Shown: piece after piece, positions 1,211-16,817 of the stretch
Layout: every line of letters starts with the position of its first letter
How positions within the stretch are numbered: position 1 is the first letter of the stretch
From: a virus
Direction: 5' to 3' (one strand)
DNA: 16,817 nt
Virus genome (UHGV): UHGV-0175824
Made by a program: the position numbers and the translations under genes
The notes under the pieces: generated by a model
Told to the model about the DNA's origin: nothing
Databases searched by the model: none
The model's input: only the letters and a program-made list of their open reading frames with translations

Positions 1211-1980
1211 GCAAGATTGATTATCAGGCACTGCGTGCTAAGGCAGAAAAAGCAACGTGTGGTGTATGGTCGCTCGAATATGGAGAGAGCCGATTTGATG
1301 GTGATGATGCGCTAATTCATCGTGAAGTTGCTGGATATATTCCCATTTGCAGAATTGAAGGAGCGCATCCAGAAAGCGGTTTCGATGAAGATTTCCAAAT
1401 GGAACAGCAGGCCAATGCTGAATTCATCGCAGCAGCCAGTCCAACTACCGTACTGGCACTGCTGGATGAACGGGAAAGAAACCAGCAATACATAAAACGC
1501 CGCGACCAGGAGAACGAGGAGATTGCGCTAACGGTAGGGAAGCTGCGTGTTGAGCTGGAAGCAACAGAGAACAACCTTATTGATAGTGAATGCCATGTTG
1601 CTGAACTGGAAGAAGCGCTACGCGATAAGCAGGTGTTACTTGAAGCCTCAGAAAAGCGCAACGCAAAATTACAAAGCGAGAATGCATACATCCGCAACCG
1701 GTTCAAAGAACTGGACCTGTTAATCGGGAAAAACATTCTGGTCATGCAGGCTGCCATTATCGAATGGCAGGCAACTGGCGACGCTAAGAGCGGACTGGCA
1801 TGGATTTATAACACACTGTTTGGCCCAGGCGAATTGCCGGACGAATCTGAGCAAGATGCTCAGGCCTACTTTAATCGCAAATATGCACCGATTGACGAAA
1901 AGCTTATGGCGCTTCACAAGTGGTTTTGGGAACAAAGTGAAGCCGAGCGCGCCGCTGGCATCAAGGAGGAGTCTGAGTGA
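1207..1980 (+). CDS. Ead/Ea22-like phage early protein (coiled-coil)
   Basis: Track ORF 1186-1980. AAAGGAGG at 1193-1200 places the real start at GTG 1207. The N-terminus [16 protein letters not shown]…W and a central coiled-coil resemble lambdoid Ea22-family proteins (from memory). Confidence 0.7.
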
Positions 1981-2471
1981 TGGTCATTTCACCTATAACG
2001 CTGAAAGCGGCGCAGGAATTTATCGCACAGCACCACCGACACAATAAACCACCAGTGGGGCATAAATTCAGCATTGGTCTGAGAAATAATGCCGGAGAAT
2101 TGATAGGTGTGGCGACAGCTGGTCGACCTGTTGCACGACATTTCGACGATGGATTAACGCTTGAAGTAAATCGCACATGTACCACAGGAGAACGCAACGC
2201 TAACAGCGCGCTTTATGGTGCTATCTGGCGGGCAGCAAAAGCTATGGGTTATCAACGTTGTATTACGTACACCCAGGCAGATGAATCAGGAGCATCTCTT
2301 CGCGCAGCTGGTTTTGTTCGTGTGAAAGAGCTTCCTCCAAGAAAAAGCTGGGCGGAATCAAGCGTCGCCCTGCGGAGTAAACGCGATCCGGTCGGAAACG
2401 GTGGTATTCCTCGTGTGCTCTGGGAAATCAGGAGAATGAGTACCACTGGCATTCGCATCAAAGGAGAGTGA
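1980..2471 (+). CDS. Hypothetical protein, possibly GNAT-fold (acetyltransferase-like)
   Basis: ATG at 1980 overlaps the upstream TGA by 1 nt (TGATG). Segment …NANSALYGAIWRAAKAMGYQRCITYTQADESGASLRAAGFVRV… loosely resembles the GNAT motif A/B region. Weak, unverified. Confidence 0.65.
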   Translation: MVISPITLKAAQEFIAQHHRHNKPPVGHKFSIGLRNNAGELIGVATAGRPVARHFDDGLTLEVNRTCTTGERNANSALYGAIWRAAKAMGYQRCITYTQADESGASLRAAGFVRVKELPPRKSWAESSVALRSKRDPVGNGGIPRVLWEIRRMSTTGIRIKGE

Positions 2472-2763: not shown

Positions 2764-3603
2764 ATGACAACTTTCACCGACAAAAAACTGATTAAAGAAA
2801 TCAAAGAACGAATCAGCAGCCTAGAGGTTCGAGACGATATTGAGCGCCGTGCTTATGAAATTGCTCTGGCATCGCTGGAAGCAGAGCCTGTTCTGTATCA
2901 GTCCTGCACTCGCCCCACCTGGAATAGCGGTGTTCCGTGGACGGAATGGAAAGAACGAAGTCGTGAGTGCTACGAAGACGATTTGCGCTTTACAGACACG
3001 CCTGACCATGCCGGTTGGATATACAAATGTCGAAAACTATATACCAATCCGCCAGCGCCGATAGCGTTGGAGGCTATTGAAAATGCAATTGAATACATTC
3101 GCAGTATCGCTTTTCACATAGATGAAGACGATTACCACGGCAAACATATTGCGTATTTCATGCGACAAGCATTGGCCTGGCTGGAAGGGTATTCATGCAG
3201 CGACGACAGACTGGGTAAAGCCGAGAATCAAACAGTACACGGCAACCAGGCAGCCGAATCCAATCGCGGTAATGAGTGGACCGGCAATCCTGATATTGAT
3301 AACGCCATCATCATGCTCGGCATAGATACGGCGGAAAGTTACGATGATGACCGTATTGAGGCTGTTAAGGCTGTTTTGCGTAGACTGGCTGGCAACTCTC
3401 CGGTAACTCCGGATAGTTGGATAAGCTGTAGTGAGCGAATGCCGAACGACGCGCAGTGGTGCGTAGTTGACGCCGCAGACGCGTATTACGTGCAATGCTG
3501 GTCTGAAGGTCAAGGATGGCTTGGAGATGACATCAGCCTACGTAATTGCGATGTAATCAGATGGATGGCGATTCCTGAACCACCGCAGCAGGATGGTGAA
3601 TGA
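2764..3603 (+). CDS. DUF551-like domain protein (C-terminal Trp/Cys-rich domain typical of enterobacterial prophage early genes)
   Basis: 279-aa ORF. C-terminus …DSWISCSERMPNDAQWCVVDAADAYYVQCWSEGQGWLGDDISLRNCDVIRWMAIPEPP… matches my recollection of DUF551. Confidence 0.7.
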   Translation: MTTFTDKKLIKEIKERISSLEVRDDIERRAYEIALASLEAEPVLYQSCTRPTWNSGVPWTEWKERSRECYEDDLRFTDTPDHAGWIYKCRKLYTNPPAPIALEAIENAIEYIRSIAFHIDEDDYHGKHIAYFMRQALAWLEGYSCSDDRLGKAENQTVHGNQAAESNRGNEWTGNPDIDNAIIMLGIDTAESYDDDRIEAVKAVLRRLAGNSPVTPDSWISCSERMPNDAQWCVVDAADAYYVQCWSEGQGWLGDDISLRNCDVIRWMAIPEPPQQDGE

Positions 3604-3689
3604 TGCCGCCAGTTAAAGTTGTGATTATCACTTTGGTGATGATAGTGATTGCGAGAATCATGTCTGGTGAAATTGGGTGGATATGGTAA
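3603..3689 (+). CDS. Possible small hydrophobic peptide (28 aa, MPPVKVVIITLVMIVIARIMSGEIGWIW)
   Basis: ATG at 3603 overlaps the upstream TGA (ATGA coupling). Single predicted TM-like helix. Followed by a terminator-like hairpin. Confidence 0.3.
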   Translation: MPPVKVVIITLVMIVIARIMSGEIGWIW

Positions 3690-3722
3690 TGGCTAAGGTA
3701 GCAGCAGAGCTCAACTAACAAT

Positions 3723-3747
3723 CCTCGCACTCGCGGGGATTTATTTT
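3723..3747 (+). terminator. Intrinsic terminator candidate inside the early operon
   Basis: Hairpin CCTCGC-actc-GCGGGG (3723-3738) followed by ATTTATTTT. Confidence 0.45.
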
Positions 3748-3760
3748 ATATGGGGATAAT

Positions 3761-4561
3761 ATGACCATCCACTTTCACGGCAGCCCAATATGGGGGGATG
3801 AGCATGCCCCTACAGATATGCTGATTAAAGCCCTTTACCGTGATGGTGGGGCTTTTGTTTCATTTGCCAGACCAGAGCAGATGAAAAAGATTGCCATGTT
3901 CCCTTGTGATATACGCCTTGATAACGGCGCTTTTAGCGACTGGATGAAAGCATTAAAGAAAGGCACTCCGGTAGACTGGAGTAAGAGACGAGCAAAATTC
4001 TACGACTTTGTTGGGAAGTGGTTCAGCAGAATTGAATGGTTTCTTATACCTGACGTTATCGAAGGGACAGAGGCAGAAAACGACGAGCAGATTGAGTTGG
4101 TTCCTGATTGGCTAAAATCAAAAGCGGTTCCGGTCTGGCATACCGACGAATCAATTGAACGTCTTTTACGCCTTTCTGGAAAATTTGAATGGGTGGCGAT
4201 TGGATGCTGCGGCCCACACAGGCACATACGCTCTAAATGGTGGGAACAGAGAATGGATGAAGTTTTTACTGAGATTTATATCAATCGTAATTTGAAAGTG
4301 AAAATTCATGGTCTTCGAATGCTCGACGTGAGAGTTCTTGGTATGTATCCGTTCGCCAGTGCGGATTCTACTAATGTTGCTGTTAACGTACCGAAGACAG
4401 AGAAGCGATTTCCTGAGATTACCGACAAACTGGCACGTACAGCTGTACTTCGCGCTGCTATTGAAAAGGTGCATCCGCCATCGATATCAGCATGGGTAGA
4501 CAGAAAGATGAGAGAGCCGGCGCAAGCCGGTTTTTTATTTGAATTCACCGACGCCGCTTAA
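3761..4561 (+). CDS. Conserved hypothetical protein (266 aa), function unknown
   Basis: ATG at 3761 with GGGGA upstream. Long clean ORF starting MTIHFHGSPIWGDEHAP…, containing GCCGPHRH. No family recognisable by eye. Confidence 0.8.
   Translation: MTIHFHGSPIWGDEHAPTDMLIKALYRDGGAFVSFARPEQMKKIAMFPCDIRLDNGAFSDWMKALKKGTPVDWSKRRAKFYDFVGKWFSRIEWFLIPDVIEGTEAENDEQIELVPDWLKSKAVPVWHTDESIERLLRLSGKFEWVAIGCCGPHRHIRSKWWEQRMDEVFTEIYINRNLKVKIHGLRMLDVRVLGMYPFASADSTNVAVNVPKTEKRFPEITDKLARTAVLRAAIEKVHPPSISAWVDRKMREPAQAGFLFEFTDAA
4517..4536 (+). terminator. Terminator-like hairpin with GNRA loop, inside the last 15 codons of the 3761-4561 CDS
   Basis: CCGGC-gcaa-GCCGG followed by TTTTTT (4531-4536). The stop codon is at 4559-4561. 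Confidence 0.4.
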
Positions 4562-4605
4562 TGCGGATTTCTTTTATCTGAACTCGCTACGGCGGGTTTT
4601 GTTTT

Positions 4606-4917
4606 ATGGAGATGATTATGGCCTGTTCAACATTCAACCATCTAACGTTACAGAAATACCAGCCAGACCCTGAAGATTTATGCTCACTGTGTGGCGGAAA
4701 TCATGGTAAAGCCGCCATGATCGAATGTAAGGACAAAATCCACATTTGCCTTAATTGCGTTGATGTCCTCGTTGATATCAAAAATGAGAGAGAAGATAAA
4801 AAGCGTAGCGAGGCTATTCGCGCATTAGATTCATGGATGCGAGATGGGTATAGTGCTGCGCAAATTTATGACTTCGCAATATCAAAAGGCGAAATACCAG
4901 GAGTGCGCATCGAATAA
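4606..4917 (+). CDS. Zinc-ribbon-like small protein (CxxC…CxxC)
   Basis: ATGs at 4606, 4612 and 4618; GGAG at 4608-4611 favours 4618. Cys pairs CSLCGG and CLNC about 18 residues apart. Confidence 0.7.
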   Translation: MEMIMACSTFNHLTLQKYQPDPEDLCSLCGGNHGKAAMIECKDKIHICLNCVDVLVDIKNEREDKKRSEAIRALDSWMRDGYSAAQIYDFAISKGEIPGVRIE

Positions 4918-4949
4918 GACGTAACCAATATTGGAATTGAAGAACTGAA

Positions 4950-4970
4950 AGAACACCAAGCCGCCTGATG
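4950..4970 (+). terminator. Intrinsic terminator
   Basis: GCCGCC-tgat-GGCGG followed by TTTTTT. Confidence 0.6.
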
Positions 4971-4994
4971 GCGGTTTTTTATTGGAGACAAGAA

Positions 4995-5339
4995 ATGTCA
5001 GATTTGGCTATGAAGGTTTTGAAATGGCAATCGACTGGCGATGTCGGCATCAGTAGCGCAACTCTTGCCTCAATCGCATGTGGCCTGAAAAAGAATATCT
5101 ATGGTCATCACTTCGGCGCTCCACATGACGCAGCAGATTTCCGACGATGCGTTGCACTTGTTGAGCAGATTCCAGAAATCAGAGATTCATTCGACAAGGT
5201 TGCAAAGCGCGTTCCGGCATTCAAAGGAATCCTCAACGAATGGGATTCACTCGTTGCTCTGTTGAAGTCTGAAATGAAGATACACGGAAACAAAGCACCA
5301 GAGACTTACAGAAGAATCAGCGAGCTACGCAAGGACTAA
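4995..5339 (+). CDS. Hypothetical phage protein (114 aa)
   Basis: Track ORF starts at 4968, but that ATG lies inside the upstream terminator hairpin. ATG 4995 is preceded by GGAGACAAG. Confidence 0.7.
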   Translation: MSDLAMKVLKWQSTGDVGISSATLASIACGLKKNIYGHHFGAPHDAADFRRCVALVEQIPEIRDSFDKVAKRVPAFKGILNEWDSLVALLKSEMKIHGNKAPETYRRISELRKD

Positions 5340-5377
5340 CGCCTCACACTCGATGAGGCCTGTACATATCTGATAGA

Positions 5378-5401
5378 GCCGCTATATGGCGGTTTCTTTT
5401 T
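5378..5401 (+). terminator. Intrinsic terminator candidate upstream of alpA
   Basis: GCCGC-tatat-GGCGG followed by TTTCTTTTT. A second hairpin GCCTC…GAGGC lies at 5341-5359. Confidence 0.5.
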
Positions 5402-5416
5402 GCCTGGAGAATTAAG

Positions 5417-5608
5417 ATGACCGATACCAGCCTGATTCCTGAGAAAGAAGTGATGAACAAGCTCGGTGTTTCATCACGTCAGACAATCTGGAACTATACC
5501 AAACGGCACGGATTTCCGAAGCCAGTCAGAACCCACCCCAAATCATACCTTCGTGAAGCTGTTGAAGGGTGGATTCTTAACGGTGGCGTTAATCAGAAAT
5601 GCTCCTGA
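5417..5608 (+). CDS. alpA: AlpA-family phage transcriptional regulator / excisionase-like HTH protein
   Basis: 63 aa. GGAGAATTAAG before the ATG. Pattern …LGVSSRQTIWNYTKRHGFPKPV…YLREAVEGW… is typical of Phage_AlpA/Xis-like proteins. Lies next to the integrase. Confidence 0.8.
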   Translation: MTDTSLIPEKEVMNKLGVSSRQTIWNYTKRHGFPKPVRTHPKSYLREAVEGWILNGGVNQKCS

Positions 5609-6767
5609 TGTTCCAGAACAATTTATCAGCGTGAAGCTCATACGCTTTGCGCTGAGCCTCTATCCAATCGTGTTTATTGTATACGGACATTATCCCGCCA
5701 AGTTCATGACCGAGCATTCGCTCAGTAACATGAGGCTCGACATTCATCTCGGACAGACGTGTAACAAGCGTTCTTCTGAAATCATGTGTTCGCCAGTAAC
5801 CTAGATCCATCCCTCCCCTTATTCTATTTACGAATCGGTTGGCTGCAGCGATGCTGATCGGTTTGTTTATGTCTTCTCCAGGAAAAAGAACATCATTGTA
5901 CGTTGTCATGGCCTTTTCGAGAAAAGGCTTAATTTGTTCGAAGATTGGACGGCGGATAACATTACCCATCTTGCTATGCTCTTTCGGTACGGTCCATACG
6001 TTGTCCAGCAGGTCAAATTCTGTCTTTGTTGCCAGCCTAAGCTCTGAGAGCCTCGCCCCCCACAGCATAAGCATCTGATGAAGGAGCTTATTTGACGTAG
6101 ACGCACGGCTTCTTTCAATAGCAAGCCAAATCTTAGCCAGTTCGTGATACGACAGTACCCGATCCCCTACCTCAGCGCGGGAGCCGAAGTCCCTTGGCTG
6201 GATGCTCATAATTGCGCAACTATCTATCAACTGACGCCGCATGCACCAACTAATTGCTGATCTTAGTTGACTTAGCACCTGCCTTGCTCGGCGTGGATTA
6301 TCTTTTTCTTCTTCGGTAAGCAGGTCAACCCATTGCTTAACCGTGATAGAAGATGCCGGACGATTAGGGAAGGCGTCATGCATGCGCTTCATAACCGTTG
6401 ATCGGTAAAGTGCCTGGGTCTTTTCTCTGAGAGTTGTAGAGACGTAGTTGTCGAACCAGTAGTCGAGACACTGGGCGACCGTCATGGAGTTCTCAACCTT
6501 CTCTTCAAAATAAGTGCGTGGATCCGTTCCTGAGAAATAGAGCTTTCGCAAGTCAGCAGTGATCTGTCTGGCATCCTTCAAAGACAGGGATGGGTATCGA
6601 CCAAGCCCAAGTCGATTAGGCTTGCCATGCCAGCGATAGCGGTACTGGAACTGGATGACCCCCTTCGGTGAAATTCGTACGCTGAGGCCATCAGCATCAG
6701 CCACTTCTTGTGGGCCCGAATATGGTTTACCATAAATAGTACGCAGTTTTGTGTCGCTTATAGCCAT
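5589..6767 (-). CDS. int: Tyrosine site-specific integrase, P4-like family (N-terminal arm-binding domain plus catalytic domain)
   Basis: 392 aa. N-terminal DUF4102-like arm-binding region (…LSVRISPKGVIQFQYRYRWHGKPNRLGLGRYPSLSLKDAR…). Catalytic motifs ARLSELR, HDFRRT, LGH and a Tyr in SVYNKHDW. Confidence 0.93.
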   Translation of the reverse strand: MAISDTKLRTIYGKPYSGPQEVADADGLSVRISPKGVIQFQYRYRWHGKPNRLGLGRYPSLSLKDARQITADLRKLYFSGTDPRTYFEEKVENSMTVAQCLDYWFDNYVSTTLREKTQALYRSTVMKRMHDAFPNRPASSITVKQWVDLLTEEEKDNPRRARQVLSQLRSAISWCMRRQLIDSCAIMSIQPRDFGSRAEVGDRVLSYHELAKIWLAIERSRASTSNKLLHQMLMLWGARLSELRLATKTEFDLLDNVWTVPKEHSKMGNVIRRPIFEQIKPFLEKAMTTYNDVLFPGEDINKPISIAAANRFVNRIRGGMDLGYWRTHDFRRTLVTRLSEMNVEPHVTERMLGHELGGIMSVYNKHDWIEAQRKAYELHADKLFWNIRSISD

Positions 6768-6777
6768 AAATAATATT

Positions 6778-6820
6778 TGGTACGCTCAGAAATAATGGTT
6801 TGGTACACATCTGGTACACA
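6778..6820 (+). repeat. Arm-type repeat cluster 1 (TTGGTACGC, TGGTACACA, TGGTACACA)
   Basis: Direct repeats read in the sequence. Confidence 0.6.
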
Positions 6821-7049
6821 ATATCACATGGACAACAGCGCACAGTAAACAACTATATTTGACGTTCGTAGACATACTCAGGTGAAAAAATGGTTGTTTT
6901 TCGAGTTATAACAGACAGTTAATTAACTACAGTGGACAATGCTAGACAATGACAGACACAGATAAACAACCTACCTTCCTCTTTCACGATTACGCGCAAC
7001 ACCCCTGAGAACCGCCATGAACAAGGGTTTCATGATTTGTGATTTTAGT

Positions 7050-7070
7050 TTGGTACGCACTTTGGTACAC
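7050..7070 (+). repeat. Arm-type repeat cluster 2 (TTGGTACGC, TTGGTACAC)
   Basis: Direct repeats of the same motif as cluster 1. Confidence 0.6.
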
Positions 7071-7407
7071 AACACAATTTTCACTTCAGCGGGTAGTCAT
7101 CAAACTCACCATAACGAGCATCGTTGATGATGTATGTGATCACCACAAATATCACATCTGGACTAGTTCCGTCTTCATGCGCAGGTATCTGTTCACGCCT
7201 CCCTTTCTGCAAATCCTAAAGATGAGATTTTTGGGTTTTGGGATATCTTTTTATCCTCAGTTCTCTATCCATTCTACAAAGCAGTAATGAACCATCACCG
7301 TGTGATAGTGAGGCATCCGCTACGTTAAGCGCAGAGAAATGATGCAGTGGTGGTCGGACTGGATTGATGAAAAGGTGTAGCAACCAACATTGCTATATCT
7401 CAGATAG

Positions 7408-16008: not shown

Positions 16009-16817
16009 CACTGCTCCGCAATGATTTTGATGGTTGTGGCAGTAAACGACGCACCATTCGACTGAACGGTTAACGTACTGCCATTTGTGGCAAGAAAGCC
16101 GTCTTTATCCACACTGAAGAACGTAGCTAACAAGATGTTATCGGTTGTTGTCGCTGAGTTGCGACTGCTTACCAGTGTGTCAGGAACAGAACCTGAAAAT
16201 GTTAGTTGCATTGACCTGTTGGCGGTTCCGCTGGGCCACGTCCCGACGATCGACAGCTTGAAGAACAAGGTTTTGTTCTCGTTGAACACAACCATCTTGT
16301 TGTTAACGGTGTCGAAGAATGGTGCCAACGTGCCGGATGACGGCGTGAGCGTTTTCAGCAGGCTAACAAGGTTGGTCGGCGCTGTCGGGATGGTTACCGA
16401 TACTCCTGAGTAAACAACCTCTGATTTCTTGCGCGTGGTGGCATACTCAAGCGCAGATATTCTTGTTGAGTGATCACCAACTGTGCTTTGTAGCGTCGAA
16501 ATACTTCCCTCTGCCGCTGTGAGCCTGGTATCAAGTGCGTCGATATCGGTTGTATTCTGAGTTATTCGCGCATCATGGTTTGCTAACTCAGATTCATTGG
16601 CAGCAATTCGCGTCTCGTGATCAGCCAGCTCTGTTTCGGCAGCCGTAATCCTTGTTTCATGATCTGCAAGAGTGCTTTCCGCTGCTGCAATTCTATGTTC
16701 ATGATTGATGAGAGTTGCTTCAGCAGCTTCAATTCTGGATTCATGGTCTGCAAGGGTGACATCCTGCTCATCATTCTTCACCTGTGCATCATAAGCCCCC
16801 TTCCCTGCTTCGTTGGC
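16008..16817 (-). CDS. Tail needle protein, P22 gp26-like, 5'-truncated at the window edge, with Sf6-type C-terminal knob
   Basis: Frame stays open to the window end. Segment …[29 protein letters not shown]… matches the P22 gp26 N-terminal region as I recall it. It is followed by 14-residue coiled-coil repeats and a beta-rich C-terminal domain. Confidence 0.8.
16563..16775. repeat. About five imperfect 42-bp tandem repeats encoding the tail-needle coiled coil
   Basis: Units begin near 16563, 16606, 16648, 16689 and 16731 (aattcNNgtNtcatgatcNgcNag…). They encode [14 protein letters not shown] / [14 protein letters not shown] / [14 protein letters not shown] / [14 protein letters not shown]. 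Confidence 0.7.

Follow-up and report, generated by a model that had tools for sequence, protein, structure and literature searches.

A probable singleton DpdA gene among exchangeable cassettes at the int-proximal end of a lambdoid early operon

Three small open reading frames (ORFs) of the virus genome UHGV-0175824 lie immediately upstream of an alpA/excisionase-like gene and an integrase gene. The question raised by this locus is whether they form one functional unit and what the largest of them encodes. An earlier model-made description, based on the letters and ORF translations (hereafter the sequence-only reading), proposed a terminator-bounded three-gene accessory unit. In the present study, we analyzed the whole stretch of DNA (the window; 16,817 nucleotides [nt]). 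The ORFs at 3761-4561 (266 amino acids [aa]), 4606-4917, and 4995-5339 (114 aa), here called genes 1, 2, and 3, exist as described, all on the + strand. Our best explanation, which we consider likely when taken as a whole, is that the segment 3720-5400 forms the end, next to int, of the leftward early (pL-type) operon in a temperate phage of the P22-like/lambdoid kind. It would consist of three independently exchangeable single-gene cassettes, each after a conserved linker of a hairpin, a T-tract, and a Shine-Dalgarno (SD) sequence; gene 1 would encode a singleton DpdA, the linkers would act as terminators, and expression would depend on pL and N. The central elements are on record (the singleton DpdA is catalogued, hairpin 1 corresponds to the annotated tL4 of HK022, and gene 3 is ORF114 of phage 434), and little of this is new. 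The main value is corrective, in that a gene unrecognizable by eye very probably belongs to a catalogued family of DNA-hypermodification enzymes.

Gene 1 and the DpdA family

Gene 1 matched PHROG 887 ("queuine tRNA-ribosyltransferase") over its full length (E 1.2e-102). Its product is 98.5% identical to gp29 of phage HK106 (YP_007151699), which is among the DpdA-only phages in Supplementary Data 1 of Hutinet et al. (2019 Nat Commun, PMC6884629). It also shares 58% identity with the DpdA of Salmonella phage 7-11 (YP_004782407) and 43% with that of Pantoea phage MED16 (gp38). The DNA of these two phages contains dADG (2'-deoxy-7-amido-7-deazaguanosine) at ~0.02% and 0.13% of G, respectively (PMC6884629, PMC8306585). 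The sequence-only reading stated that none of the three genes is recognizable; this holds by eye, but by profile gene 1 belongs to a phage family at E 1e-102. A profile of 61 family sequences aligned with the validated DpdA of phage 9g in hhalign (98.1% probability, E 7e-14), pairing LDNGAFS with LDSGAFS, VWH with CFH, HGL with HGF, and SADST with SCDSS. The phage 9g DpdA by itself inserts dPreQ0 in E. coli from host preQ0 (PMC6884629). No que or folE genes were found within the window, which makes gene 1 a "singleton" DpdA. We are highly confident that gene 1 is a member of the DpdA family.

The gene 1 protein has a (beta/alpha)8 TGT-like barrel in its structure model. Residues D54, D98, H127, H183, D202, and S203 were invariant in 61 relatives with identities down to 25%, and D54 and D202 aligned with the corresponding motifs of 9g DpdA in hhalign. 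The predicted active site comprises D54 (general acid/base, in LDNGAF), D98, H127, the G148/G151 loop, H183, and D202-S203 (nucleophile). The catalytic positions are at the C-terminal ends of strands 3, 4, 5, 7, and 8, and the D54-F58 spacing fits D95/F99 of bacterial DpdA. Judged by strand order and spacing rather than by superposition, the catalytic set appears to match D95 (acid/base), F99, D130, H181, and D256 (nucleophile) of the bacterial enzyme.

The sequence-only reading had weighed a TGT/DpdA assignment and dropped it for want of a CxCxxC motif, and thereby discarded the correct family. The motif is indeed missing: there is no Cys after D202, and the CxCxxC...H structural zinc site is absent. 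However, the validated 9g DpdA also lacks CxCxxC, and, therefore, its absence is no argument against DpdA. On the sequences compared, this zinc site appears to define TGT and bacterial DpdA, not phage DpdA. A PAPS-reductase-like assignment, also considered earlier, received no support in any search.

The gene 1 family comprises 1832 clusters at 50% identity (E <= 1e-3), and in several phages of Vibrio and Escherichia, homologues adjoin genes for preQ0/VUT-type transporters. The relative P0006 (460 aa, 76% identical to gene 1, 42 member sequences) carries a fused Dam DNA adenine methyltransferase domain (PF05869), a fusion that favors DNA as the target on which this DpdA clade acts. In the E. 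coli human isolates H107-H111, the DpdA gene is 99.5% identical, has 800 instead of 801 nt, and is annotated as a pair of hypothetical proteins, suggesting that a frameshift has inactivated this copy.

We favor, with some reserve, an enzyme that uses host preQ0 to mark phage DNA at low density with 7-deazaguanine by the double displacement of TGT/DpdA enzymes; both the activity and the base are inferred from relatives. In the proposed mechanism, DpdA would act on phage DNA after replication and, at a rare sequence motif, replace guanine with a 7-deazaguanine base. The chemistry would proceed through a covalent Asp202-deoxyribose intermediate with Asp54 as the general acid/base, and the base inserted would be preQ0 made by the host, with dPreQ0 or dADG as the final form. 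The outcome may be limited protection against DNA-targeting host defences. We consider this protective role to be less likely than the activity itself.

Several points weigh against this reading. Neither gene 1 nor any of 60 relatives had a Pfam, NCBIfam, PADLOC, or PDB sequence match, and the Pfam TGT model PF01702 was matched by none of them. Profiles A1 and A5 of the family gave only chance matches to PDB sequences, with no TGT or DpdA found by hidden Markov model. An alignment of the family profiles to the single E. coli Tgt sequence was not recovered in hhalign, and the link of gene 1 to TGT, therefore, had to run via the phage 9g DpdA, to which the alignment of D98 is locally ambiguous. 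Characterized phages with a singleton DpdA are very low in modification, and MED16 DNA is still cut by most tested enzymes (PMC8306585), which makes a protective benefit no more than a possibility. A literature search found no paper on HK106 gp29 or on the function of a lambdoid DpdA beyond the listing in Hutinet et al. (2019).

Hutinet et al. also noted that the singleton subgroup has possibly diverged in function (PMC6884629). The 266-aa protein may accordingly have kept the DpdA/TGT fold and act not as a preQ0 DNA insertase but in Cap10-like protein transfer, on host tRNA, as a plain DNA glycosylase, or with another base. We regard such a divergence as doubtful. The profile homology is to a validated DNA-acting DpdA, the residues for base exchange are all invariant, and 7-deazaguanine is present in the DNA of two phages whose enzymes are 43-58% identical to gene 1. 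The DNA methylase fusion in a relative and the preQ0-type transporter neighbours point in the same direction, and a QueC/Cap9-like partner and a CD-NTase are absent from the window.

Cassettes, hairpins, and linkers

Among 5426 complete E. coli genomes, gene 1 was present in 82, gene 2 in 317, and gene 3 in 963, whereas the contiguous trio (at least 80% of 3600-5620) was present in three; no phage record covered 80% of this interval. The trio is intact in, for example, E. coli MB50 and VG38-53E1. The prophage of the latter strain (the sibling prophage) is 99.9% identical to the window over 3400-5800. Phage HK106 carries gene 1 without genes 2 and 3, and HK022, Stx2-1717, and mEp234 carry gene 3 without gene 1. 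In BLAST searches of the window against these loci, every homology breakpoint was located at a hairpin.

These results bear on the view of the sequence-only reading that the genes form one co-functional defence or anti-defence module, such as DpdA with two accessory subunits after the manner of DpdA/DpdB/DpdC. The genes are adjacent, co-oriented, and in a known accessory-gene region, a few genomes hold the trio intact, and bacterial DpdA requires its partner DpdB (PMC10164549). However, the distribution largely refutes this module, which we consider very improbable. The genes assort independently, each as a separate indel with its own flanking repeats, and HK106 is a viable phage with DpdA and neither of the others. 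Moreover, the gene 2 and gene 3 proteins are unlike DpdB (an ATPase) or DpdC, and the phage 9g DpdA is active alone in E. coli. DpdB/DpdC-like roles for genes 2 and 3 were rejected because no similarity was found; under our explanation of independent cassettes, both would be unrelated cargo.

The empty site shows how the DpdA cassette is bounded. In HK022, Stx2-1717, and mEp234, hairpin 3 stands directly after hairpin 1 (...AATCCTCGCACTCGCGGGGATTTCTTTTATCTGAACTCGCTACGGCGGGTTTTGTTTTATGGAGA...), and the annotated "tL4" of HK022 spans the hairpin-1 part of this double hairpin. In the window and HK106, the T-tract is interrupted by an inserted 0.83-kb segment (~3751-4578) containing an SD, the DpdA ORF, and its own terminator-like hairpin. 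Copies of the imperfect direct repeat GCGG(G)GATTT[A/C]TTTTAT border this segment, the left one at 3733-3750 (+ strand) and the right one at 4562-4578. Gene 2 (~4613-4986) is flanked by TTTTAT(T)GGAGA and is missing from Stx2-1717 and mEp234, in which hairpin 3 runs straight into gene 3. The gene-2 slot of HK022 and HK106 holds a different 55-60-aa ORF (lambda p35-like) with a common 5' SD-ATG; HK106 also shares the 3' linker 4917-4984 (96% identical to 5023-5090 of the HK106 locus L002), such that the hairpin 4 sequence there comes after another small ORF.

The sequence-only reading overlooked the 54-nt linker between genes 1 and 2, a non-coding element made up of a T-tract, hairpin 3, another T-tract, and an SD. 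This linker was found at 3106 places in 2194 of the 5426 genomes, mostly with 98-100% identity, and is much more widespread than any of its cargo. At eight sampled places, the genes upstream of the linker included DUF551, ASCH, LprI-family, and dATP/dGTP pyrophosphohydrolase genes, reverse-oriented ORFs, and host genes at prophage remnants. Downstream, a 55-aa ORF was usually followed by xis-int or torI, with a gene-3 homologue between them in one case. An Rfam search of 3400-7200, including this linker, found no family. In lambdoid phages, genes are exchanged through relaxed homologous recombination between short stretches of conserved sequence (Martinsohn 2008, PMC2327257; De Paepe 2014, PMC3945230). 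The cassette anatomy fits this process, and the sibling prophage encodes a RecT recombinase. The linkers would double as short homologies for the gain, loss, and replacement of cassettes.

We also offer two tentative ideas that we hold, jointly, to be rather unlikely. The ~50-nt double-hairpin/T-tract/SD linker (~3100 copies, 95-100% identity) may have been selected as a site of cassette exchange, a "slot" for homologous recombination at which lambdoid phages swap single accessory genes, and its terminator activity may prevent the expression of new cargo in the lysogen. The singleton DpdA, for its part, may be a portable module of one gene that turns host preQ0 into a rare, motif-specific dADG/dPreQ0 mark against some defence.

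The hairpins of the sequence-only reading are real and each is followed by a T-run, but their coordinates were off by a few bases (corrected stems in Table 1). Hairpin 2 is not after the 266-aa ORF but inside its 3' end, and the gene 1 tail encoded there (residues 256-266) was modelled as disordered (predicted local distance difference test <50). A fifth hairpin, hairpin 3, had been overlooked. Nine terminator-like sites were found in 3700-5420 against 1.6±1.2 expected from dinucleotide shuffles, and none on the + strand of the preceding 3.7 kb of the operon in the same scan. Five + strand hairpins at gene boundaries have the stem-loop and T-run of intrinsic terminators, and four of the five folded far better than shuffled sequences (z -2.9 to -4.0). 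Hairpin 1 is 91% identical to the tL4 feature of HK022 (GenBank X51962). The hairpin linkers, thus characterized by sequence and predicted folding, probably act as intrinsic terminators.

Regarding gene 2, the earlier ORF at 4606 is valid, but its start is probably further downstream. ATG 4618 (99 aa) is the most likely start because an SD (GGAG, 4608-4611) is located at the right spacing 6 nt upstream, RefSeq gives a 300-nt gene in the sibling prophage, and homologues begin with MAC/MPS at the equivalent Met. The family is small and enterobacterial; its N-terminal segment YQPDPEDLCSLCGGN...KIHIC..CVD is nearly invariant, and the C-terminal motif IYD..GKIPxIRID is conserved. Its four Cys (CxxC-x18-CxxC) are each >=90% conserved. 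Single-sequence matches to the ClpX zinc finger were weak (Pfam E 0.015; PDB 2ds7 E 0.05), and the Pfam score of 15.6 bits against a curated cut-off of 27 limits the resemblance to the domain level. The family profile aligned with E. coli ClpX residues 14-51 in hhalign (90% probability, E 1.4e-6), with all four Cys paired. It is purely speculative that the protein is a decoy for the adaptor or substrate ligands of the ClpX N-domain.

No known fold or function was recognized for gene 3. In the proteins P0171, P0173, P0184, P0192, P0207, P0208, and P0219, a portion of gene 3 is joined to pieces of early-left genes that are unrelated to it (Ead/Ea22, Kil, Erf, and dATP/dGTP pyrophosphohydrolase). 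These chimeras look recombinant or like mis-called ORFs, and suggest that exchange joints in this region also fall within genes.

Table 1. Positions and characteristics of predicted features in the window
Feature	Position	Strand	Basis and remarks
Hairpin 1 and T-tract	3720-3750	+	stem 3720-3741; 9 pairs, 5 GC; -13.1 kcal/mol, z -3.9; ends 19 nt before the DpdA start codon
Gene 1, predicted singleton phage DpdA (DNA-guanine transglycosylase, TGT superfamily), 266 aa	3761-4561	+	PHROG, BLAST, profile alignment, structure model
Hairpin 2	4511-4536	+	strongest; 11 pairs; -16.8 kcal/mol, z -4.0; within the final ~17 codons of gene 1
Conserved linker, 54 nt	4562-4615	+	right repeat 4562-4578, hairpin 3, T-tract, SD GGAG 4608-4611
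Hairpin 3	4580-4599	+	z -3.4; part of the 54-nt linker
Gene 2, predicted ClpX-type C4 zinc-binding domain, 99 aa	4618-4917	+	PHROG 3680; Pfam, PDB, family alignment, hhalign
Hairpin 4, T-tract, and SD GGAG	4958-4986	+	stem 4958-4977; z -2.9; 3' linker of the gene-2 slot
Gene 3, all-helical, 114 aa	4995-5339	+	PHROG 1229; HK022p30, phage 434 ORF114, homologue of an N15 early protein
Hairpin 5 and T-tract	5376-5401	+	stem 5376-5395; weak, z -1.3; directly upstream of the alpA/xis-like gene
AlpA-family helix-turn-helix/excisionase-like gene (alpA/xis-like)	5417-5608	+	PHROG 66, E 1.9e-8; RefSeq annotations; final gene of the leftward operon
Tyrosine integrase, "type 2851," sbcB-site family	5589-6767	-	RefSeq annotations; convergent with the operon

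Expression and genomic setting

Family searches of the window ORFs showed that the + strand carries the distal portion of an early-left operon of lambdoid type, in the order Gp157, Ead/Ea22-like, XF1762/Mom-like, DUF551, gene 1, gene 2, gene 3, and AlpA/excisionase-like. The placement by the sequence-only reading of an accessory stretch near int at the end of this operon is supported, and its idea of an anti-defence hotspot fits the DNA-modification (anti-restriction type) family of the largest gene. However, independent transcription is unlikely. A scan limited to the sigma-70 consensus predicted no promoters in 3700-5420 (2.7 expected) and none on the + strand across 3000-7200, and the hairpins end 18-21 nt before the next start codons. 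That reading had itself named homology to a characterized function and the lack of independent transcription as evidence against it, and its proposal of a novel unit is largely refuted.

The promoter scan also bears on the possibility that the cassettes are classical morons switched on in the prophage, with their own promoters, the hairpins as insulators, and a lysogen phenotype such as defence. The gene-plus-terminator layout is moron-like, and linker-adjacent cargo in other prophages includes reverse-oriented genes. Nevertheless, we consider morons to be unlikely here: a gap of 18-21 nt after a hairpin leaves no room for a promoter, and a promoter further upstream must read through a terminator. 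The genes are also co-oriented with pL and are located downstream of an N-type antiterminator in the sibling prophage. The points raised against each of the three alternatives make them weaker than the explanation by exchangeable, pL-expressed cassettes.

The operon of the sibling prophage opens with a promoter resembling pL and an N-like antiterminator (PHROG 271, E 7.7e-33), after which come more terminators. For the cassettes, the likeliest mode is delayed-early expression during lytic growth that depends on antitermination. N-modified RNA polymerase from pL would probably read through the hairpins and, thus, turn the cassettes on only in lytic growth, while in the lysogen the stacked terminators would prevent expression of the cargo close to the excisionase gene. 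This part of the explanation is weakened by the fact that hairpin termination and N dependence are predicted, and that the N gene is outside the window and deduced from the sibling prophage.

The surrounding genes were surveyed. The XF1762-family/Mom-like protein encoded at 1977-2471 (+) matched NCBIfam NF045478 (E 2e-61) and PHROG 1384 "Mom-like DNA modification protein" (E 7e-43); its Pfam Mom score of 24 bits was under the cut-off. With this gene, located 1.3 kb upstream of DpdA, the operon holds two candidates for DNA hypermodification. The DUF551 gene (2764-3603, +) is an intact 279-aa ORF in the window and is broken into a pseudogene fragment and a 147-aa ORF in E. coli VG38-53E1 (13165-14004 of locus L003). 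An unannotated 29-codon ORF, MMPPVKVVIITLVMIVIARIMSGEIGWIW, at 3600-3689 (+) overlaps its stop codon (ATGA) and is directly upstream of hairpin 1; the predicted product is hydrophobic and membrane-peptide-like. At the same place, HK106 has a different, unrelated 29-aa Cys-rich ORF.

The alpA/xis-like gene and int are convergent and their 3' ends share 20 bp (5589-5608), from which it follows that a leftward read-through transcript would be antisense to int. Beyond int, a DUF1796 papain-like gene and a GDSL esterase/lipase gene (7500-8888) are located about where P22-like phages hold O-antigen conversion genes. The stretch 9008-16781 encodes a P22-type tailspike (Head_binding N-terminus), gp16/gp20/gp7-like ejection proteins, DUF2824, and an Sf6-type needle. 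This gene order indicates that the window has the phage (attP-intact) order and is not a prophage junction; in the sibling prophage, sbcB adjoins int instead. A tRNA search of the window found none, and the integrase is, thus, not beside a tRNA there. A phage-inducible chromosomal island (PICI) or P4-like satellite context was rejected, as the surrounding genes are lambdoid/P22-like.

The DpdA gene is carried in prophages of ~1.5% of complete E. coli genomes. The role of singleton DpdAs in temperate phages, including the base, motif, and defence concerned, is a question also raised by Hutinet et al., and an inducible lambdoid prophage in a tractable host is a convenient system for addressing it. 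The cassette anatomy provides a clean, countable example of lambdoid accessory-gene exchange at conserved terminator linkers.

Comparison with known systems

The singleton DpdAs of HK106, 7-11, and MED16 are in the same family as gene 1; these phages have no preQ0 synthesis genes and the host makes preQ0. The HK106 gene is at the same map position, directly upstream of xis-int, and its product, like that of gene 1, is a DpdA predicted from sequence. Gene 1 differs from these three in its P22-like phage, its int/alpA module, and its neighbouring cassettes. The phage 9g DpdA1 (YP_009032326), a validated DNA preQ0 insertase, has the motifs LD[NS]GAFS, xxH, HG, and S[AC]DS[ST] in common with gene 1. 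It is too distant for a single-sequence search, and no 9g match was among the tblastn matches listed (E limit 1e-5). The 317-aa enzyme of 9g is part of a full FolE-QueD-QueE-Gat-QueC cluster, with ~25% of G replaced, whereas gene 1 is a lone gene. The Dpd restriction-modification system includes a bacterial DpdA (PDB 7ui4; Gedara et al. 2023, PMC10164549); this enzyme and TGTs show 16% identity to gene 1. In contrast to bacterial DpdA, gene 1 has no large Ins8 insertion, structural zinc site, DpdB ATPase partner, or restriction genes.

Antitermination in HK022 uses put RNA instead of N. The tL4 of this phage (X51962) is like hairpin 1 and is also in the pL operon, and the stretch directly after it (3001-3060 of locus L005) is 95% identical to the hairpin-3 linker; in the window, however, the double hairpin is split by the 0.8-kb DpdA cassette. 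Gene 2 aligns with the N-terminal zinc domain of ClpX (PDB 2ds7, 1ovx) in its C4 CxxC...CxxC spacing and surrounding residues, but is a stand-alone 99-aa protein without the AAA+ module. A classical moron has a promoter of its own, whereas the cassettes in the window have no predicted one. In lambdoid mosaicism, indels are bounded by short conserved sequences, as they are here, and in the present locus the linker is a specific terminator-SD element.

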